Below are positions 2,286 through 20,091 of a stretch of DNA of 20,091 nucleotides, piece by piece. The position numbers and the translations under genes are program-made. The DNA is taken from the IMG/VR virus record IMGVR_UViG_2693429524_000017, positions 1-20,091 of that record; one strand, written 5' to 3'. The stretch's first letter is position 1. Every line of letters starts with the position of its first letter. This DNA is from a virus. Taxonomy: Duplodnaviria; Heunggongvirae; Uroviricota; Caudoviricetes. The notes beneath the pieces are model-generated. The model saw only the letters and a program-made list of their open reading frames with translations, searched no databases and had not been told where the DNA came from.

Positions 2286-4486
2286 TGGCTGATGATAGAA
2301 AGATGACTGACTGGCATCGCAAGGTGCTGTGCAACTTTGATAATGCCTGGTCAGCAACGCAGGATATGCGTGAGCAGATTATTGAGGCTCAACGTTTCGT
2401 CCGGGTATCCGGCGCACAGTGGGAAGGCAGCACAAACGCTGGTTACTCATTTGATGAAGGAAGGTTTGAGCATTACCCGCGCTTTGAGCTGAATAAGATT
2501 GCCCGTGAATGTGATCGCATCATTGGCGAGTATCGACAGAATCGCATCAGCGTTAAATTCAGGCCGAAGGACGATAAGGCATCGGAAGCGTTAGCCGAAA
2601 AGATGAACGGCAAATTCCGCGCTGACTATCAGGAAACATCCGGTGGCGAAGCGTGTGATAACGCATTTGATGATGCTGTAACGGGCGGATTCGGTTGTTT
2701 CCGCATGTGTGCCGATTACGAAGATGAAATGGATCCGAGTAACGAGCAGCGCCGTATAAGCCTTCTTCCTGTTTACGACCCAGCGACATGCGTCTTCTTC
2801 GATCAGGACAGCAAGCAATATGACCGCTCTGATGCTATGTGGGCTATGGAAATGTTCTCCATGACGCCTAAAGCGTTCGAGGCTGAATACCCTGACTCCA
2901 TCGCGGCAAGTCTTTCTCGTGATGACACTGGTACTCAGTATGACTGGTCAACGCCTGATGCCATCTATGTTGGACGCTACTACGAAGTTCGCATAGAGAA
3001 GGTGAAGCTCACGGCGTGGCGCAATCCTGTCAGCGGAGAAACGGCAATCTATGATGAAGAGCAAATCAAAGATATTGTCGACGAGCTGACCGATGGTGCA
3101 TTCGAACTGATTGGCGAGCGAACGGTGAAGAAGCGCCGCGTTTATTGCGGTCTTCTGTCTGGCGCTGAATGGCTGGAAGAACCGAAGCGTATTCCGGGCG
3201 AACATATTCCTCTCATCCCGGTATATGGGCGTCGCTCATTTGTTGATAATCAGGAGCGAATAGAAGGCCACGCAGCAAAAGCGATGGATGCACAGCGTCT
3301 TGAGAACCTGATGGTTTCCATGATTGCAGATAACGCTACTCAGGCTGGCGGTGATGGCATTCCTGTAGTTGATGTTGACATGATTCCTGGTCCTCTCGCC
3401 AATCATTGGGCGGAGCGCAACAAAAAGCGCCCGGCGTTCCTGCCGATGGTAAGTCTGAAAAACAAAAACGGAGATATTACTGCGCAGGCTCAGGTCAGCA
3501 GTTATACACCTCCGACACAAATGCCTCCTGCTCTTGCCGGGTTATTGCAGTACACCGGAACGGCTATTCAGCAAATTACCGGGGCTTCGCAGCTTGAGAA
3601 CATGCCGAGCAACGTCGCCACCGATACCGTTGATAGCATCTTTAACCGGATGGACACGCAGTCCTATATCTACATGGACAACATGGCTAAATCCATGCGT
3701 CGCGCTGGCGTTGTGTGGCTTTCTATGGCGCGTGAGGTCTATGGCAGTGATACGCCGATGCGTATCGTGAATGAGGACGACAGCGATGACGTGGCGCTGA
3801 TGACTGGTGAAGTGGTTGACCGTCAGACAGGGCAGGTTATCGCGCTTAACGACCTTTCGCAGGGTAACTATGAAGTGACTGTCGATGTCGGTCAGTCGTT
3901 CGCTACTCGCCGTGATGCAACGGTTAAGTCGTTACTTTCCATGCTGGCACTTATCCCACCAGGAACGCCGAAGCACGACCTTGTATCGTCGATGATTCTC
4001 GACAATATGGACGGCGAAGGGATGGACGACCTGAAAGAATACAACCGCAATCAGTTGCTTCTGTCTGGCGTTATCAAGCCGAGAACGCCTGAAGAACAGC
4101 AAATGGTTGAGCAGGCGAAACAACAACAGGCCAGTCAGCCAGATCCGGCTATGGTTGCTGCGCAAGGTCAGCTTCTTGCTGGCCAGGCTGAATTGCAGAA
4201 AGCGCAGAACGAACAGGCAGCCATTCAGGTTAAAGCATTCCAGGCACAGACTGATGCTCAGGTTGCAGCGGCAAATGTTGTGAAAATACTCGCATCTGCC
4301 GATAGTCAGCAGAAATCTGATATCCGCGAGGCTCTGAAACTGCTCGGACAGTTCCAGCAACAGCAAGGAGATAATGCCCGTGCTGATGCAGAGCTTGTCC
4401 TGAAAAGTCAGGCACAGGGCCATGCGCAGCGCATGGACATCAGCAGCATCCTGCAAAAATCAACTCAGCAACAACCACAGCAGTAA
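2285..4486 (+). CDS. Portal protein (P22 gp1-like), about 733 aa
   Basis: Tandem ATGs at 2282 and 2285 overlap the terL stop; the track ORF begins at a TTG at 2270. Length and position fit a portal, with a Q/A-rich helical C-terminus like the P22 portal barrel. Shared motifs include KKRRVY, GEHIPLIPVYG and RMDISSILQ, but the sequence is clearly divergent from P22 gp1 as I recall it. Confidence 0.85.
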   Translation: MADDRKMTDWHRKVLCNFDNAWSATQDMREQIIEAQRFVRVSGAQWEGSTNAGYSFDEGRFEHYPRFELNKIARECDRIIGEYRQNRISVKFRPKDDKASEALAEKMNGKFRADYQETSGGEACDNAFDDAVTGGFGCFRMCADYEDEMDPSNEQRRISLLPVYDPATCVFFDQDSKQYDRSDAMWAMEMFSMTPKAFEAEYPDSIAASLSRDDTGTQYDWSTPDAIYVGRYYEVRIEKVKLTAWRNPVSGETAIYDEEQIKDIVDELTDGAFELIGERTVKKRRVYCGLLSGAEWLEEPKRIPGEHIPLIPVYGRRSFVDNQERIEGHAAKAMDAQRLENLMVSMIADNATQAGGDGIPVVDVDMIPGPLANHWAERNKKRPAFLPMVSLKNKNGDITAQAQVSSYTPPTQMPPALAGLLQYTGTAIQQITGASQLENMPSNVATDTVDSIFNRMDTQSYIYMDNMAKSMRRAGVVWLSMAREVYGSDTPMRIVNEDDSDDVALMTGEVVDRQTGQVIALNDLSQGNYEVTVDVGQSFATRRDATVKSLLSMLALIPPGTPKHDLVSSMILDNMDGEGMDDLKEYNRNQLLLSGVIKPRTPEEQQMVEQAKQQQASQPDPAMVAAQGQLLAGQAELQKAQNEQAAIQVKAFQAQTDAQVAAANVVKILASADSQQKSDIREALKLLGQFQQQQGDNARADAELVLKSQAQGHAQRMDISSILQKSTQQQPQQ

Positions 4487-14857: not shown

Positions 14858-14918
14858 ATTAAATGACATTTGACATAGTTGGATACTTAGCTGCGGCTAT
14901 CAAGATGGAGGTATGTTT

Positions 14919-15362
14919 ATGCTCACTTGTTTTGATGTCGCCGACTACTTCTTGGCGCATTGCGATGAAGAAAGTGGCGACATTATCTCTAACCTAAAAA
15001 TTCAGAAGTTGACGTATTATGCCCAAGGGTTTTCTCTGGTTCTTCTGGGTAAGCCGCTATTTAATGAGAAAATTGAAGCCTGGATGCATGGGCCAGTAGT
15101 TCCTGAATTGTATCGTAAATATAGGGACTGTGGTAACGGCGCTTTACCTGCGCCAGAAAACTTTGACGCTAAAAAATTCAGTGAAGATGAAATTGAATTG
15201 CTGGATGAGGTGTATAAAGTTTATGGTCAGTTTTCTGCCTGGAAACTGCGCAATATGACTCACGAAGAGCAGCCATGGAAAGATGCTTACATTGAGGGTG
15301 CGGTTAGCCAAGAAATCACGCTTGATTCTATGAAAGGTTTTTTCAAAACGTTAATTAACTGA
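14919..15362 (+). CDS. Panacea (DUF4065, COG3600 GepA/SocA-like) domain protein; putative antitoxin or immunity component, about 147 aa
   Basis: Translation contains NLKIQKLTYYAQGFSLVLLGKPLFNEKIEAWMHGPVVPELYRKY, which I recognise as the Panacea core pattern. GGAGG at 14907-14911 favours the ATG at 14919 over the track start at 14913. Stop is 5 nt before the next ORF. Confidence 0.6.
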   Translation: MLTCFDVADYFLAHCDEESGDIISNLKIQKLTYYAQGFSLVLLGKPLFNEKIEAWMHGPVVPELYRKYRDCGNGALPAPENFDAKKFSEDEIELLDEVYKVYGQFSAWKLRNMTHEEQPWKDAYIEGAVSQEITLDSMKGFFKTLIN

Positions 15363-15367
15363 CGTGT

Positions 15368-15790
15368 ATGTCTAGAGTTAAGGGAAGAATAAAACAGAGG
15401 GATAAAGAGAGCTCTGCTACTGTTGGCCTCTCTATCCATCACGAATCTCATGATGTAGACAAAAGTCCGCCTGTATTTTCTCTTAGATACCTACAAAAGG
15501 GGTATTGCCTAGATTGCTGCCAAAAGCATGAAAAGGCAGCATTTGCAGATAGGCTGTTCAGGTTAAGTCAGATGTCATGGGATGAGATACGAAAATCTGA
15601 TAAACACGGGCTTGGGACGGAAAAAATTGCCAGAAACGCGATAAAGGCTCCGATTCCTAAGCATGTTACTCAAGATGTGGATTTCATTGCGTTCAGATTT
15701 TGCTCTAAGGCACCTATGGTTGGTTATAAGATAGGAGCCACTTTTTATGTCTTATGGCTCGACAGGGAGTTCAAGCTATACAAGCACTAA
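15368..15790 (+). CDS. Hypothetical basic protein, 140 aa; candidate toxin/effector partner of the upstream Panacea-domain protein
   Basis: ATG 5 nt after the upstream stop with no independent Shine-Dalgarno, so probably translationally coupled. K/R/H-rich, with a C-terminal segment VDFIAFRFCSKAPMVGYKIGATFYVLWLDREFKLYKH. I cannot assign a family. Followed directly by an intrinsic terminator. Confidence 0.55.
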   Translation: MSRVKGRIKQRDKESSATVGLSIHHESHDVDKSPPVFSLRYLQKGYCLDCCQKHEKAAFADRLFRLSQMSWDEIRKSDKHGLGTEKIARNAIKAPIPKHVTQDVDFIAFRFCSKAPMVGYKIGATFYVLWLDREFKLYKH

Positions 15791-15833: not shown

Positions 15834-16037
15834 TTAACCAAATCGATCCTTAAAGCGCCTATCGCTGTTGCGTCTCTCCATTTTACTGTTGCAGTACGGA
15901 CAAAGATGCTGTTTCTTTCCATCGATAGTCCATGTGAAGTACTTTTTCTTAAATCCAGCACCACAGATATCGCAACTTCTTGGTTTAAACATACTGGCTA
16001 TGAAGATAAGAACAACAAATCCTATGATCCATTCCAT
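15834..16037 (-). CDS. Small membrane-anchored protein with a CxxC...CxxC zinc-ribbon motif, 67 aa
   Basis: N-terminal hydrophobic helix WIIGFVVLIFIASMF, then CDIC...CPYC and a basic tail. AT-rich; ends at the bidirectional terminator. Confidence 0.5.
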   Translation of the reverse strand: MEWIIGFVVLIFIASMFKPRSCDICGAGFKKKYFTWTIDGKKQHLCPYCNSKMERRNSDRRFKDRFG

Positions 16038-16178: not shown

Positions 16179-16364
16179 ATGACCATAGAAGAACGCCTGA
16201 ACAACATTGAGTTGAACCAAACCCTGCTTGACCAGCGACTTTCAGATCTTGAGCTTAAAGATCTTGATGCGCAAATATCAGAAGCAGAAGCCAAGCTCTC
16301 CAGCTTAAACCACCGCAAGAAGCAAATCCGCAACAGAATTACTCAGGGACGCGGAAGCTGTTGA
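16179..16364 (+). CDS. Small coiled-coil hypothetical protein, about 61 aa
   Basis: ATG at 16179 with AAGGAG 5 nt upstream. Heptad-like leucine pattern. Its 3' end overlaps the convergent minus-strand ORF by 26 nt. Confidence 0.45.
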   Translation: MTIEERLNNIELNQTLLDQRLSDLELKDLDAQISEAEAKLSSLNHRKKQIRNRITQGRGSC

Positions 16365-16548
16365 GGTGGGATGCTAGGTCTCTATCGTTAAAATCAAGGC
16401 TGCTAATCATTTCATTGTAAATGGCGTTTTTATCTTCCATTGGCAGTCTTGAGTAAACCAGGCACAGAGCATATTTCAGGGAGTTTAGCTCCTTCTCTAG
16501 CTCTTCCTTGCTTGACGTTGTTGACTTAATAAACTGTTTTTTGTTCAT
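16339..16548 (-). CDS. Small hypothetical protein co-transcribed downstream of mnt, 69 aa
   Basis: ATG overlaps the mnt stop (ATGA on the minus strand), so probably translationally coupled to mnt. No family recognised. Confidence 0.5.
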   Translation of the reverse strand: MNKKQFIKSTTSSKEELEKELNSLKYALCLVYSRLPMEDKNAIYNEMISSLDFNDRDLASHLNSFRVPE

Positions 16549-16796
16549 TTTTCATCCTTACCATACATGGTCTTTAGCGCCTCAACATCGTGTTCAAGAT
16601 CTATCAATCGTGATGCTATAGTTGCAAGGTCTAGTGCTTGAATGTGTTTATTTTTTTCGGTCCACGCTTCAAGTGCCGCGACCATCTCAGCATTTAATGA
16701 ACGAGAATTAGCCTCAGCCAGTTCAATAAGACGTTCCTTTATCTCTACAGGAAGCCTCAGATTCACTTGAGGGTTTTTGTACTTACGATCAGACAT
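16545..16796 (-). CDS. mnt: Mnt-like ribbon-helix-helix repressor, 83 aa
   Basis: N-terminal RHH motif NLRLPVEIKERLIELAEANSRSLNAEMVAAL aligns with my recollection of P22 Mnt; same length; transcribed divergently from arc/ant as in P22 immI. Confidence 0.8.
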   Translation of the reverse strand: MSDRKYKNPQVNLRLPVEIKERLIELAEANSRSLNAEMVAALEAWTEKNKHIQALDLATIASRLIDLEHDVEALKTMYGKDEK

Positions 16797-16824
16797 CGGC
16801 GCATCCTGAATAATTTTTTACCAC

Positions 16825-16853
16825 AGGATATGTAGGTATCTATTGACTATCAA
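16825..16853 (-). promoter_or_regulatory. Pmnt-like promoter (minus strand: -35 TTGATA, 17-bp spacer, -10 TATCCT)
   Basis: The -35 is the reverse complement of 16848-16853 and the -10 of 16825-16830. An AGGA Shine-Dalgarno lies 7 nt before the mnt ATG. Overlaps Pant back-to-back. Confidence 0.5.
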
Positions 16854-16871
16854 TGCGTACCTAAATACTAT
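16843..16871 (+). promoter_or_regulatory. Pant-like promoter (-35 TTGACT, 17-bp spacer, -10 TACTAT) driving arc, ORF67 and ant
   Basis: TTGACT at 16843-16848 and TACTAT at 16866-16871; GGAGGA RBS at 16893-16898 before the arc ATG. Confidence 0.6.
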
Positions 16872-16889
16872 GTATGCGTACCACATACA
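16871..16889. promoter_or_regulatory. Operator-like palindrome TGTATG-N7-CATACA over the Pant -10/start region (candidate Mnt- or Arc-type operator)
   Basis: Inverted 6-bp arms at 16871-16876 and 16884-16889. In P22 the Mnt operator overlaps the Pant start point. Which repressor binds here is not determined. Confidence 0.4.
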
Positions 16890-16901
16890 ACGGAGGATGC
16901 A

Positions 16902-17042
16902 ATGAAGGTAAAAACACTGCGTATGCCAGAGAAGCTAGAAAAAATTCTTGAAGAAAAAGCAAAGGAAGAGTGTCGCTCATTCAGCGCAGAAGTAATTAAA
17001 CGGGTGATGGACAGCCTGAAGAGAGAGGGGATAACTGTATGA
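16902..17042 (+). CDS. arc: Arc-like ribbon-helix-helix repressor, 46 aa (absent from the ORF track because it is under 60 aa)
   Basis: ATG at 16902 with GGAGGA upstream. Translation MKVKTLRMPEKLEKILEEKAKEECRSFSAEVIKRVMDSLKREGITV aligns with P22 Arc as I recall it, notably RSFSAEVIKRVMDSLKREG against RSVNSEIYQRVMESFKKEG. Confidence 0.8.
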   Translation: MKVKTLRMPEKLEKILEEKAKEECRSFSAEVIKRVMDSLKREGITV

Positions 17043-17242
17043 GTAAAGAATGTTGTTTCTGCGGCATTAGCGAATCAGACGCTGATCAAACATACATTTA
17101 CTCTAAAGAAACAGGTCGGATGCTGTGTAGTGACTGCGTGTTGGACATCATAAGATACAAGCATCTTGGATGTTCTGCCAGCATTAGCAATATAGGTGAA
17201 GTATATGAAGGGAAAGATATAACTGATAGAGCAGAAAGTTGA
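17039..17242 (+). CDS. Small Cys-rich (zinc-ribbon-like) hypothetical protein, 67 aa, translationally coupled to arc
   Basis: ATG overlaps the arc TGA (ATGA). Cys cluster CCFCG...CSDC...C. Sits between arc and ant, where I recall P22 having only an intercistronic region. Confidence 0.55.
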   Translation: MSKECCFCGISESDADQTYIYSKETGRMLCSDCVLDIIRYKHLGCSASISNIGEVYEGKDITDRAES

Positions 17243-17340
17243 AGCCCCAACTGCTGGAACAGTCAGGGCTTCGGTATCGTAAAACCACACATAGGAATTA
17301 ACGACATGAAAAGTATAGCAACAGCAGTATCTACTATCAA
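17236..17340 (-). ncRNA. sar: Candidate sar-like antisense RNA locus: minus-strand promoter inside the ant 5' end, transcript running antisense across the ant RBS to a hairpin at 17241-17272
   Basis: Minus-strand -35 TTGATA (reverse complement of 17335-17340), 17-bp spacer, -10 TATACT (reverse complement of 17312-17317), placing the start near the ant ATG. An extended hairpin GAAGCCC..ACTG-CTGGAA-CAGT..GGGCTTC lies at 17241-17272. The predicted length of about 65-70 nt is similar to the P22 sar RNA as I recall it. The span includes the promoter. Confidence 0.45.
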
Positions 17341-18172
17341 TGTACCATTCCACGGCGCAGAGCTTTATGTTGTCAATCACAACGGCGAACCGTATACCCC
17401 AATGAAACCTATCGTTGAAGGCATGGGTATGGATTGGGCTTCACAGTTTACGAAAATGAAGCAGCGGTTTAAAACCTCCATTGTGAAAATCACAATGCAG
17501 CTTCCTGGTGATGAACAACGCCGTGAGATTATTTGTTTGGCACTTCGCAAACTTGCAGGTTGGCTGCAAACCATTAGCCCTAACAAAGTCCGCCCTGAAA
17601 TCCGCGACAAGGTAATCCAGTATCAGGAAGAGTGTGACGATGTGCTCTACGAATACTGGACTAAAGGTCATGTAGTTAACCCACGCAAAGCTAAAAAGGC
17701 GTTGCCGGGTAAAATTACCACTGAACAGCAGGAAGCCATTAAACAACTCGTCATGAGTCGCGGTCAGTCTCTGCCAAAAGAAAAACAGGCGAAGGCGATG
17801 ATCACCATGTGGTCGTCACTGAAATCTCATTTTGGGTGTTCATACAAAGAAATCAGCGATGAGCAGTTTACCGAAGCTCTGTCACTTGCAGCTCGTATTC
17901 CACTTGAAGGCGAGTTCATTGGCAAGTCGAAACATAATGAGATGAGTTGTTTTGATTGGAGGATGAATGTTCATAACCTGAACTCGGCGTGCATTCATCT
18001 TGATGCCATGTACAGAATATGGAGAGACGAAATGGAACCCGCTTTGCGATTGCTTGGCTCTCCGGTTGCGACCAGATTTTGCGGAAGAATTGCAGATTGC
18101 TATTCCGTAACTGCAAGCGTTAAGAAAAGTCTGGAGAATGCCGCAGGGCTGAAAGGCTTACAACCATTTTAA
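17306..18172 (+). CDS. ant: Antirepressor Ant (P22 Ant-like), 288 aa
   Basis: N-terminal segment YTPMKPIVEGMGMDWASQFTKMKQRF...ICLALRKLAGWL...YQEECDDVLYEYWTKG is typical of phage antirepressor N-domains; located after arc as in P22 immI. Confidence 0.8.
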   Translation: MKSIATAVSTINVPFHGAELYVVNHNGEPYTPMKPIVEGMGMDWASQFTKMKQRFKTSIVKITMQLPGDEQRREIICLALRKLAGWLQTISPNKVRPEIRDKVIQYQEECDDVLYEYWTKGHVVNPRKAKKALPGKITTEQQEAIKQLVMSRGQSLPKEKQAKAMITMWSSLKSHFGCSYKEISDEQFTEALSLAARIPLEGEFIGKSKHNEMSCFDWRMNVHNLNSACIHLDAMYRIWRDEMEPALRLLGSPVATRFCGRIADCYSVTASVKKSLENAAGLKGLQPF

Positions 18173-18212
18173 CTACCTGCACGAAAAGTGCAGGTCAATC
18201 ATCAACGCAACG

Positions 18213-18236
18213 ACCCAGCTTCGGCTGGGTTTTTTT
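18213..18236 (+). terminator. Rho-independent terminator after ant
   Basis: ACCCAGC-TTCG-GCTGGGT hairpin followed by a T-run (18231-18236). Confidence 0.75.
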
Positions 18237-18294: not shown

Positions 18295-20091
18295 ATGACA
18301 GACATTACAGCCAATGTTGTAGTGAGCATGCCTTCGCAACTCTTCACTATGGCGCGTTCTTTTAAAGCGGTTGCCAATGGCAAAATTTATATTGGTAAAA
18401 TTGACACTGACCCTGTAAATCCTGAAAACCAGATTCAGGTTTATGTGGAGAACGAAGATGGTTCTCACGTCCCTGTTTCGCAACCAATCACCATTAACGC
18501 TGCTGGTTATCCGGTATATAACGGACAGATTGCCAAGTTCGTAACTGTACAGAATCACTCCATGGCTGTTTATGATGCATATGGTGCACAACAATTCTAT
18601 TATCCTGATCTACTTAAATATTCTCCAGACCAGTTAAGGGCTGAGCTTTCTGGCCCTGATGGCGCATCTCTGGTTGGTTATGGAGGCACAACCGTAAAGA
18701 TTGAGCTGGAGATCTTGAAAGCTACACATGATTCATTAATTGATAAAACAGGATTTAACGCTATTGGCCGCTTTCTCAATCTTTCAGAGCTTCGCTCCTG
18801 TGTTCCAGAGGAGGCAGGGCAGATTGTATACGTAGCATCAGCAGCTAGCACTACACATGCTGAAAACCACCTTGGTGGCGGCTTTTTCGAGTCTGTTGAT
18901 AACATTCAGGCGTGGGCTGATGATGGTGGAATTGTAATCAAGCCAGAAACTGGAACGATGGTATGGAGACGAATTAATTTTACCACTTACGACATGCAAT
19001 TTTGGGGGGTGAAACCTGACGGAGTCACAGATAACGCAACAGCTATAACTCTTGCAACTAACTTTGCCCGCTCAAACAAATGCATTCTAGAGGCTCCTGC
19101 TGGAAACATAAATACATCAAAAACAATCCCAATTTATGACAATATGGGAATTAGAGGACAGGGAAAGGCTGAAGCGACAGTTTTTTATAAAACAACAAAT
19201 GACAAAATAGATCTCACAAAAAATGGAGAAGTAATTCTTCAGGTGGATGCATTATGTGCTTTTATACCAAAACAATGGGATCTAACAGATAACTCAATGA
19301 GTTCATTTTGTGTTAACGGTAGAGTTGAAAACTGCATGTTTAGAAGGCTTGGCTTAACACAAGAAAATGTAGATTCTTATAGAAATTATTACGGACTGTT
19401 TTTAGGAAAATCAGCAGCACCAGTTATCAGACAGTCAATTTTTGAATGTGCTTATATCGGATGCTTCTCTTATGCGCCGTTCTCTGGCGTAATGGAAATG
19501 GTCGGTTTCCCACAATATCCAGGGAAAGGATATGCTGGAGTTTTATTTGAAGATTTTAGGGATGGTCAAATAAAAGTAATAGGCACTTCTATGGATATGC
19601 GCCTTGTTCAGGTTAACGGTTACCAGTTGTCATTTAGAATGTCAGGAATGCAATATACCACCATGACCAATTGTACTGCTGAAAACTGCACGCCAATGGA
19701 TGGGGAGTCAATTTGCTATGCATTTGATTTTGTAAATCCGTATTGCATTGTCATGAATACTTGTGCAACAGAATTTGTTAAGGGTGGGCAACTTCGTGTT
19801 AGCGTTCAGGGAAACCCATCATTCAGACCATCTATTATTGTCAATGGCTTTCTGCCAATTGATCAACAAAGCCCGGTAGTGCAAACACCTATAATAGATA
19901 TTGATAATGGTGGCGTAGTTGAAATGAGTGTCATATTAAATGGTGGAGATTGGGCTATAAATCCATCTGCTACAAATTTAGCCGTACCAAGAGCAAGCGG
20001 AAATGGGTTGAAAGCAAGGTTAATAGGTGTAAACGGGTCGCCTGTTTCGATCTGGAGCGTGTCTCCTGGCGCAGATGTGAAGGAGTTCTAA
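18295..20091 (+). CDS. Tailspike protein (P22 gp9-family N-terminal head-binding domain fused to a divergent receptor-binding domain), 598 aa
   Basis: N-terminus [50 protein letters not shown] matches the conserved P22/Sf6/HK620 particle-binding domain. The remainder is a different, AT-richer domain. GGAG RBS; the TAA is the last codon of the window. Confidence 0.85.

Follow-up and report, generated by a model that had tools for sequence, protein, structure and literature searches.

A Predicted ClpX-Type Zinc-Binding Protein Encoded in a Swappable Gene Slot between arc and sar of P22-Type immI Operons

The immI region of phage P22, with its repressors Mnt and Arc, antisense RNA sar and antirepressor Ant, is a textbook regulatory circuit. 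We analyzed an immI region of this type in a 20,091-nucleotide (nt) stretch of Caudoviricetes DNA (positions 1 to 20,091 of IMG/VR record IMGVR_UViG_2693429524_000017; "the window" below), where a 67-amino-acid (aa) open reading frame (ORF), here called ORF67, is the middle cistron of an arc-ORF67-ant operon. Comparison with related loci indicates that ORF67 is very probably a real protein-coding gene and, with equal confidence, an allele of a swappable cassette; its product is likely a divergent, free-standing zinc-binding domain (ZBD) of the ClpX type, in fold and by homology, with a short tail. About one third of the sampled relatives hide such a precisely bounded small-gene slot, and its commonest occupants appear to be stand-alone copies of the domain by which ClpX recognizes adaptors and substrates. 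ORF67 is most likely an accessory protein of the early burst of expression from the promoter Pant; that this ClpX-ZBD-like cassette cargo acts through ClpXP is an overall reading that we put forward tentatively.

An Extra Cistron between arc and ant

The ATG of ORF67 (17039-17041) overlaps the arc stop TGA (17040-17042) as ATGA, a 4-nt overlap that the preliminary description of this DNA had already noticed and whose arrangement fits translational coupling. A Shine-Dalgarno-like run, GAGAGGGG, lies inside the arc 3' end, 8 nt 5' of this ATG. At the other end of the frame, the TGA falls in the base of the sar terminator stem, leaving a gap of 63 nt to ant. The translated product, MSKECCFCGISESDADQTYIYSKETGRMLCSDCVLDIIRYKHLGCSASISNIGEVYEGKDITDRAES, has six Cys residues, including the pairs C5-x2-C8 and C30-x2-C33.

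The length of ORF67 is not significant on its own, because a random 67-codon frame stays open with a probability of (61/64)^67, about 0.04 per frame. ORF67 rises above chance because both the frame and the Cys residues are conserved in diverged homologues at the same position. An identical protein is encoded by phage CUS-3, and at least 80% of window positions 16800-17400, a span from arc through ORF67 and sar into the start of ant, is found in 54 of 5,426 complete E. coli genomes. The frame is thus kept in relatives, and the extra gene of the preliminary description survives comparison with related genomes. A sibling of ORF67 in the same slot, a 74-aa protein with the zinc-ligand motif, has a ratio of non-synonymous to synonymous substitution rates (dN/dS) of 0.19 over 33 differences and, judged by this ratio, is under purifying selection.

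The ORF67 family is narrow, with five clusters at 85% identity or more plus two Salmonella clusters among 5.8 billion proteins. In an exhaustive phmmer search over 1.84 billion representatives, the only true distant relative was a 68-aa Salmonella protein (P0014; 37% identity in a local match); over the alignment, the Salmonella 68-aa homologues are 26-31% identical to ORF67. P0019, a protein 84% identical to P0014, has entries in 536 blocks of the assembly collection. The top phmmer matches, long fish immunoglobulin-repeat proteins, were spurious and arose via repeated low-complexity stretches, and a scan of species-representative genomes for ORF67 relatives gave 31 pattern matches, none of which was confirmed. 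The six Salmonella loci fetched (L005-L010) all place the homologue after a 52-aa arc and before an ant of 298 or 303 aa; its start overlap (4 nt), stop position and distance to ant (63 nt) are those of ORF67.

The Salmonella alleles differ mostly in their tails. Between L005 and L010 (positions 4001-4207) we counted 14.5 non-synonymous and 2.5 synonymous changes; most of the non-synonymous ones fall in the C-terminal tail, where dN/dS is about 3, albeit from small numbers, a hint of diversifying change in that part of the protein.

A 112-aa protein called in some read-assembled contigs (P0001) is an Arc-ORF67 fusion (..SLKRGGDGMSKECC..). It would be explained if the GAGAGAGGGG run at the arc/ORF67 junction had changed in length, through a sequencing error or because the site is prone to slippage.

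A Predicted ClpX-Type Zinc-Binding Domain

Residues 1-43 of ORF67 (17039-17167) make up a predicted C4 zinc-binding domain with ligands C5, C8, C30 and C33, and residues 44-67 (17168-17239) a tail predicted to be disordered. The protein had been described as zinc-ribbon-like; profile matches narrow this to a probable treble-clef zinc-binding domain of the ClpX type. The two CxxC pairs of ORF67 are 21 residues apart, and the ClpX-type pattern has about 18-22 residues between them.

We aligned the five slot-encoded protein types of 60, 63, 67, 68 and 74 aa that carry the zinc-ligand motif (alignment A3). M1, C5, F7, C8, C30 and C33 are invariant in all of them, at 17-31% identity to ORF67. The top seven PDB matches of the A3 profile are all ClpX chains (best E value 1.3e-7), and hhalign gave A3 a probability of 92.8% against residues 1-60 of E. 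coli ClpX. A profile built without the 60-aa protein, from ORF67, the Salmonella type and the 63-aa type (A4), found ClpX (6vfs) as its sole PDB match, at E 0.013; hhalign gave it a probability of 85% against the 60-aa protein and 62.8% against E. coli ClpX 1-60. The only PDB match of a five-sequence profile was again ClpX, weakly (E 0.74).

The 60-aa type passes the Pfam model zf-C4_ClpX (PF06689) with 42.2 bits against a cut-off of 27 (E 7.6e-11) and aligns to the N-terminus of the NCBIfam ClpX models. Against the same cut-off, the Salmonella homologues reach 13.2 and 10.2 bits, and for relatives tblastn and Pfam yield ClpX zinc-finger matches that stay below threshold; UniRef labels a Salmonella homologue "ClpX-type ZB domain-containing protein". 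In PHROGs, ORF67 is already present as phrog_7150, and ORF67 (E 6.7e-5) is joined through phrog_5259 to both the 60-aa type (1.2e-7) and the 63-aa type (1.3e-3). Further phage families of the stand-alone, ZBD-like sort are in PHROGs too, all of unknown function.

An AlphaFold model of ORF67, computed from a shallow alignment, has a mean predicted local distance difference test score (pLDDT) of 62. In residues 1-43 (pLDDT about 72) it places a beta-hairpin and a helix that starts from the second CxxC, and it leaves residues 44-67 disordered. A Foldseek search against viral predicted structures returned nothing at E of 0.001 or below.

Other candidate folds were set aside. A phmmer search of the PDB with ORF67 alone gave weak matches to the RNF4 RING, reaching E 0.005 only via a tandem-duplicated chain; because the profiles point only to ClpX, we take these as a generic cross-brace/treble-clef resemblance. 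A Pfam match to UPF0167 (E 0.26) was disregarded.

ORF67 is neither ClpX nor, by its scores, a member of the ClpX zinc-finger family at the Pfam threshold. It has no AAA+ module, its 67 aa ending at the sar terminator, and, flanked by arc and ant, it is no orthologue or fragment of ClpX.

ORF67 Is One of at Least Ten Cargo Types in the arc-sar Slot

IMG/VR was scanned for the conserved 3' end of arc (AGCYTGAAGAGAGAGGGG), and the interval from there to the sar stem was parsed. All 97 stretches with this arc 18-mer have a cargo ORF, or a frameshifted ORF67, directly downstream, and each arc-anchored locus has exactly one small ORF in the slot between arc and sar. Among the 100 slot occurrences analyzed, all intact cargo ORFs start on the arc stop as (A/G)TGA, and their TGA stops lie 2 nt into the sar stem. 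ORF67 matches both junctions and is the commonest cargo type.

The arc-anchored census comprises nine cargo types, of 57, 60, 63, 67, 68, 73, 74, 80 and 89 aa, and a scan anchored on sar (below) added a tenth, L155. The 67-aa type is ORF67, the 68-aa type is that of Salmonella, and the 73-aa type is orf73 of phage vB_SemP_Emek (JQ806763), where it is annotated as hypothetical. A CxxC...CxxC pattern is present in six of the ten types (60, 63, 67, 68 and 74 aa, and L155). Emek orf73 and the 57-, 80- and 89-aa cargos agree with ORF67 in position, ATGA overlap and a TGA in the sar stem, but their sequences are unrelated and lack the Cys4 motif; PHROGs lists them as of unknown function. Two of the non-zinc cargos have weak FlbD-like matches, and one begins with a hydrophobic, transmembrane-like stretch and has only sub-threshold Pfam matches.

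Both junctions of the cassette can be placed. Cargo-bearing arcs end in ..SLKREG(I/V)(T/M/V)V, a sequence that supplies the ribosome-binding run 8 nt before the cargo start, and P22-type cargo-free arcs end in ..SFKKEGRIGA. The last cargo codons (..KS, ..KQ or ..ES before the stop) are the complement of the sar terminator tail; the right junction therefore lies just inside the ORF.

The second scan was anchored on the sar stem and followed collection order, hence it was unbiased by arc type; it yielded 73 classifiable loci. About 47 of them have no cargo and about 24 (about one third) have one, ZBD-like in 13 cases. Twenty-six cargo-free loci are of the P22 type, where 4 nt separate the end of arc from the stem; in others arc ends in the stem.

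In a cross-tabulation, four Ant clusters (268, 292, 296 and 307 aa) and two Arc types are found alongside ORF67, and every Ant cluster pairs with several cargo types. These pairings show free reassortment of cargo, Arc type and Ant type and speak against a dedicated regulator of Ant, one of the roles suggested in the preliminary description. Such a regulator would set how much Ant is active, or when, by binding Ant or Arc or by tuning the translation of ant. The position of ORF67 would suit this: it would be co-transcribed between arc and ant, it overlaps arc in a coupling arrangement, and it stops within the stem-loop of sar and ant mRNA, at a position identical across cargo types, where terminating ribosomes could affect sar pairing. 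We nonetheless consider such a role quite unlikely. ORF67 has at least four Ant clusters (268-307 aa) and at least two Arc types as partners, Ant clusters also go with unrelated cargos, and P22-type and other loci work with the slot empty. The stop position, moreover, is a property of the operon that cargo preserves and does not add, because a cargo-free arc likewise terminates at the same stem or 4 nt before it. ORF67 fits better as an independent accessory gene than as a dedicated partner of Ant.

One seemingly empty slot, in E. coli strain ET734 (L003, 1741-1780), holds a 12-codon remnant, MIRLDAAKKSKQ, of the 57-aa cargo (MIRLDAVV...EVMLDAAKKSKQ). It corresponds to an internal deletion between two TTGGATGC (..LDA..) repeats; arc, sar and ant are retained.

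Evidence against ORF67 as a ClpX-Type Gene, and Alternative Explanations

Several observations weigh against reading ORF67 as a functional gene for a ClpX-type protein. The RefSeq pipeline PGAP makes no ORF67 call, and in RefSeq E. coli genomes usually only arc and ant are annotated in the equivalent of 16800-17400. ORF67 is frameshifted in 11 of the 36 IMG/VR loci that bear it (25 are intact) and also in an O157:H7 prophage (L002). Its alleles have at most three differing sites, so that their dN/dS is uninformative, and the two Salmonella 68-aa alleles have a dN/dS of about 1.2 over 17 differences. ORF67 itself gives no zf-C4_ClpX match up to E 10 and lies below every Pfam and NCBIfam threshold. 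Finally, because unrelated cargo types fill the same slot, slot position is uninformative about ClpX.

Some of these points would suit an ORF67 without protein function, whether as a frame in decay or as a passive spacer that is open only to let ribosomes travel from arc to the sar stem: the frameshifts in the O157 prophage and the 11 IMG/VR loci, the missing PGAP annotation, the very narrow family and the collapse of the 57-aa sibling to 12 codons in ET734 with arc, sar and ant kept. We judge this very unlikely all the same, with four zinc ligands and F7 invariant across aligned types that share roughly 20-37% identity, a significant ClpX zinc-finger match in one sibling (60 aa), the low dN/dS of the 74-aa type, the segment maintained in 54 complete E. 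coli genomes and an intact frame in 25 of 36 IMG/VR loci. A passive spacer would also not repeatedly be a foldable C4 domain.

A somewhat unlikely, but less remote, explanation is that ORF67 is an anti-defense or anti-immunity cargo with a target other than ClpX, its zinc finger serving as a compact scaffold that binds a host or prophage immunity protein or a nucleic acid. An anti-immunity or anti-defense role, the other one suggested in the preliminary description, would fit both the cassette behavior and the early-burst operon. The slot is polymorphic, with at least ten cargo types in about one third of sar-bearing loci, and its cargo reassorts independently of Arc and Ant; the operon combines a strong consensus promoter with the autorepressor Arc; the elevated dN/dS of the Salmonella alleles (about 1.2, and about 3 in the tail, from small numbers) points the same way; and ORF67 has decayed in the O157 prophage, whose Arc has 36 aa, as expected for a gene needed only during infection. 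However, no match to a known anti-defense or defense family was found (none in PADLOC; "unknown function" in PHROGs), and the occurrence of the predicted ClpX-ZBD fold in six of ten cargo types suggests that this fold is important in its own right and is more than a generic scaffold.

A Possible Role through ClpXP

In P22, as established by Susskind, Youderian, Sauer and McClure, Pant is active in a burst after infection or loss of Mnt, Arc then shuts it off, and Mnt holds it off in lysogens. If the window behaves likewise, its Pant-like promoter would drive arc-ORF67-ant, with ORF67 translation coupled to that of arc; ORF67 would be made in a short burst after infection or upon Mnt loss, until shut-off by Arc, and would be silent in a stable lysogen.

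Substrates of the lambda O and MuA types are recognized by the ClpX ZBD. The domain is the docking site for SspB and RssB, and isolated ZBD supplied in trans inhibits the RssB-mediated breakdown of sigma-S by ClpXP (PMC7226468). The free ZBD of ORF67 might mimic this docking platform for adaptors and substrates, titrating ZBD-dependent partners (of the SspB, RssB or lambda O type) or pairing with the ClpX N-domain. ClpXP proteolysis would then be briefly re-routed early in infection, shielding phage proteins or blunting a protease-dependent host response. By analogy with the isolated ClpX domain, a role of ORF67 as a docking-domain decoy is thus possible, if doubtful. It is somewhat more doubtful still that enterobacterial temperate phages carry a family of free-standing ClpX-docking mimics on a swappable one-gene cassette of the Pant operon, as decoys that would for a short time keep ClpXP from seeing adaptor-delivered or ZBD-dependent substrates.

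The mechanism stands as a hypothesis that can be tested and not as a finding; the descriptive result is solid and, for so classic a system, somewhat surprising. If slot-encoded ZBDs are decoys, they would give a phage a simple genetic means to reprogram a central host protease for minutes after infection, with relevance to lysis-lysogeny decisions, protease-controlled toxin-antitoxin defenses and the design of ClpXP modulators. ClpX-docking mimicry would then be a previously unrecognized form of phage control over host proteolysis. Literature searches found no paper on a gene or cassette between arc and sar, or on the function of stand-alone ClpX zinc fingers of phages.

The immI Operon of the Window

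The features of the region are collected in Table 1. The layout is that of a P22-type immI region, with divergent mnt and arc genes for ribbon-helix-helix repressors, ant after arc, and sar across the ant start. The flanking genes named arc and ant in the preliminary description are borne out by their Pfam matches. mnt is transcribed divergently from the Pant-like promoter. The sar terminator stem occupies 17241-17272, and the sar 3' tail is complementary to the last ORF67 codons, marking the right junction of the cassette; the sar element is also present in CUS-3, O157, ET734 and the Salmonella loci. Weak Rfam matches to ctRNA_pGA1 and rsmX, below their gathering scores, are chance hits that coincide with the sar stem-loop and the ant terminator.

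Table 1. Predicted genes, promoters and RNA elements of the immI region, in window coordinates
Feature	Position	Strand	Basis and remarks
mnt, 83 aa, Arc/Mnt-type ribbon-helix-helix repressor	16545-16796	-	Pfam Arc, E 3.1e-10; position as P22 mnt
Pmnt-like promoter, TTGATA-17-TATCCT	16853-16825	-	Consensus scan; predicted function; overlaps Pant-like site
Pant-like promoter, TTGACT-17-TACTAT	16843-16871	+	Consensus scan; predicted function
arc, 46 aa, first Pant cistron	16902-17042	+	Pfam PF03869 (Arc), E 2.9e-9, over cut-off
arc conserved 3' end, AGCCTGAAGAGAGAGGGG	17013-17030	+	Encodes ..SLKREG..; left junction of cassette
ORF67, 67 aa	17039-17242	+	Stop TGA 17240-17242
sar antisense RNA	17237-17304	-	Rfam RF00262, full length, 80.9 bits (gathering 43), E 9.1e-17
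Psar-like promoter, TTGATA-17-TATACT with TG extension	17340-17312	-	Consensus scan; just upstream of sar 5' end (17304), as in P22
ant, 288-aa antirepressor, third cistron	17306-18172	+	Pfam P22_AR_N, E 4.9e-45
Terminator-like stem-loop and T run after ant	18212-18231	+	Scan; P22 terminator annotated at equivalent place

In gene order, orientation, divergent promoter layout and full-length sar, the window matches P22. The difference, as the preliminary description had it, is that P22 has only an intercistronic region where the window has ORF67: in BK000583 the arc stop (15022) abuts or overlaps the sar 3' end (sar 15021-15090), ant follows from 15091, and no ORF lies between, whereas the window has a third cistron between arc and sar. 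Arc is also shorter in the window (46 aa) than in P22 (53 aa), and the 3' end of the window arc doubles as the ribosome-binding site of the cargo gene.

This arrangement bears on a further explanation, that ORF67 is a lysogenic-conversion or superinfection-exclusion gene expressed from the prophage to the benefit of the host. ORF67 does lie within the "ant moron", a region known to gather such genes (PMC2629481), and its neighbors in the window resemble a toxin-antitoxin pair. But the consensus scan found no promoter-like site of its own for ORF67, and ORF67 has decayed in the resident O157 prophage. It sits, furthermore, inside the Pant unit, which by established P22 biology is off under Mnt in lysogens. 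This is hardly likely at all, the least probable of the explanations considered here.

ORF67 in CUS-3 and in O157:H7

In CUS-3 (L001, CP000711), the segment 2735-3216, which carries no annotation beyond "bsq2 boundary sequence", includes an arc of 46 aa, an ORF67 identical to that of the window and a full sar (84.6 bits). The epsilon34 genome paper reported that CUS-3 apparently lacks arc (PMC2629481); by its sequence CUS-3 has one, which contradicts this published inference.

By sequence match, ORF67 also occurs outside P22-like podoviruses. In O157:H7 strain TW14359 (L002, 2500-2801), a module of arc 3' end, ORF67 and sar lies at 93% identity in a lambdoid prophage, between tail genes and adjoining nleL; Arc is only 36 aa long there, and an extra T, in a run of T that follows codon 6, breaks ORF67. 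A partial match of this kind, at 90-95% identity, is shared by about 450 complete E. coli genomes; the frameshift was read in TW14359 and the 11 IMG/VR loci only.

Neighboring Genes

At window positions 14913-15790 (+ strand) lie two genes: a 149-aa SocA/Panacea antitoxin-like gene (Pfam PF13274, E 2.2e-24; NCBIfam SocA_antitoxin, 6.5e-17, under its cut-off) and, 5 nt further on, a 140-aa ORF with weak MAG6450 and PADLOC NsnC matches. Together they probably make up a toxin-antitoxin pair of the PanA type within the ant moron. In Caulobacter, SocA serves ClpXP as an adaptor, an echo of the ClpX-like ORF67, and mimics of the ORF67 type could be a trigger for protease-guarding toxin-antitoxin systems such as this SocA-family pair 1.7 kb upstream. 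The pair is present in only 7-8 of 55 ORF67 loci. Most PanA antitoxins act through direct binding (PMC8832971).

Two small ORFs lie on the opposite strand. One of 67 aa (15834-16037) has an N-terminal hydrophobic segment, then CxxC...CxxC, with a weak Zn_ribbon_8 match (E 0.0068); unrelated to ORF67, it adds another small zinc-ribbon candidate to the moron. The other, of 69 aa (16339-16548), overlaps the end of mnt by 4 nt and occurs in 21 loci, mostly with non-zinc cargo; it has no family match.

Elsewhere, the gene directly downstream of mnt specifies a ClpP-fold protein of 178 aa (Pfam CLP_protease, E 1.2e-11), as in L005-L010 (about 2967-3503, - strand) and in 54 loci overall. We rejected it as a partner of ZBD-like cargo: it accompanies non-zinc cargo at least about as often (12 of 20 orf57 loci versus 21 of 55 ORF67 loci) and is absent from the window. 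In L005-L009 there is also a gene for a HicA-type toxin, with a DUF1902 gene in front of it.

The window ends within a tailspike gene (18295-20091, + strand; cut by the window end), which has a P22-type head-binding domain (E 5.8e-65) and a pectate-lyase-like body, unlike the endosialidase of CUS-3.

Comparison with Known Systems

The ClpX ZBD and ORF67 agree in the CxxC-x(18-21)-CxxC pattern and in the common local motif "C.FCG" ... "IC..CV"; in the ORF67 model a beta-hairpin leads into a helix from the second CxxC onward, as in ClpX, and ClpX is the only family matched by the profiles. They differ in that ORF67 is free-standing, with no AAA+ motor, has a knuckle spacing of 21 residues versus 18, and carries two extra Cys (C6 and C45) and an unrelated disordered tail.

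Anti-CRISPR (acr) genes ride in operons with Aca autorepressors. The arc-sar cassette resembles acr-aca operons in its strong early promoter, small DNA-binding autorepressor and variable small cargo beside a conserved regulator. Unlike acr genes, however, arc-sar cargo comes after the repressor gene and before a large gene for an antirepressor, and inhibition of a defense by it is hypothetical.

Phage inhibitors of host proteases include PinA of T4 and Gp4.5 of T7. On the host side, the anti-adaptors IraD, IraM and IraP act on RssB (PMC7226468). All of these modulate delivery to ClpXP or Lon: as proposed for ORF67, they are small and divert the AAA+ proteolysis of the host at the docking step and not at catalysis; none of them copies the protease's own docking domain, as ORF67, whose activity is only inferred, appears to do.

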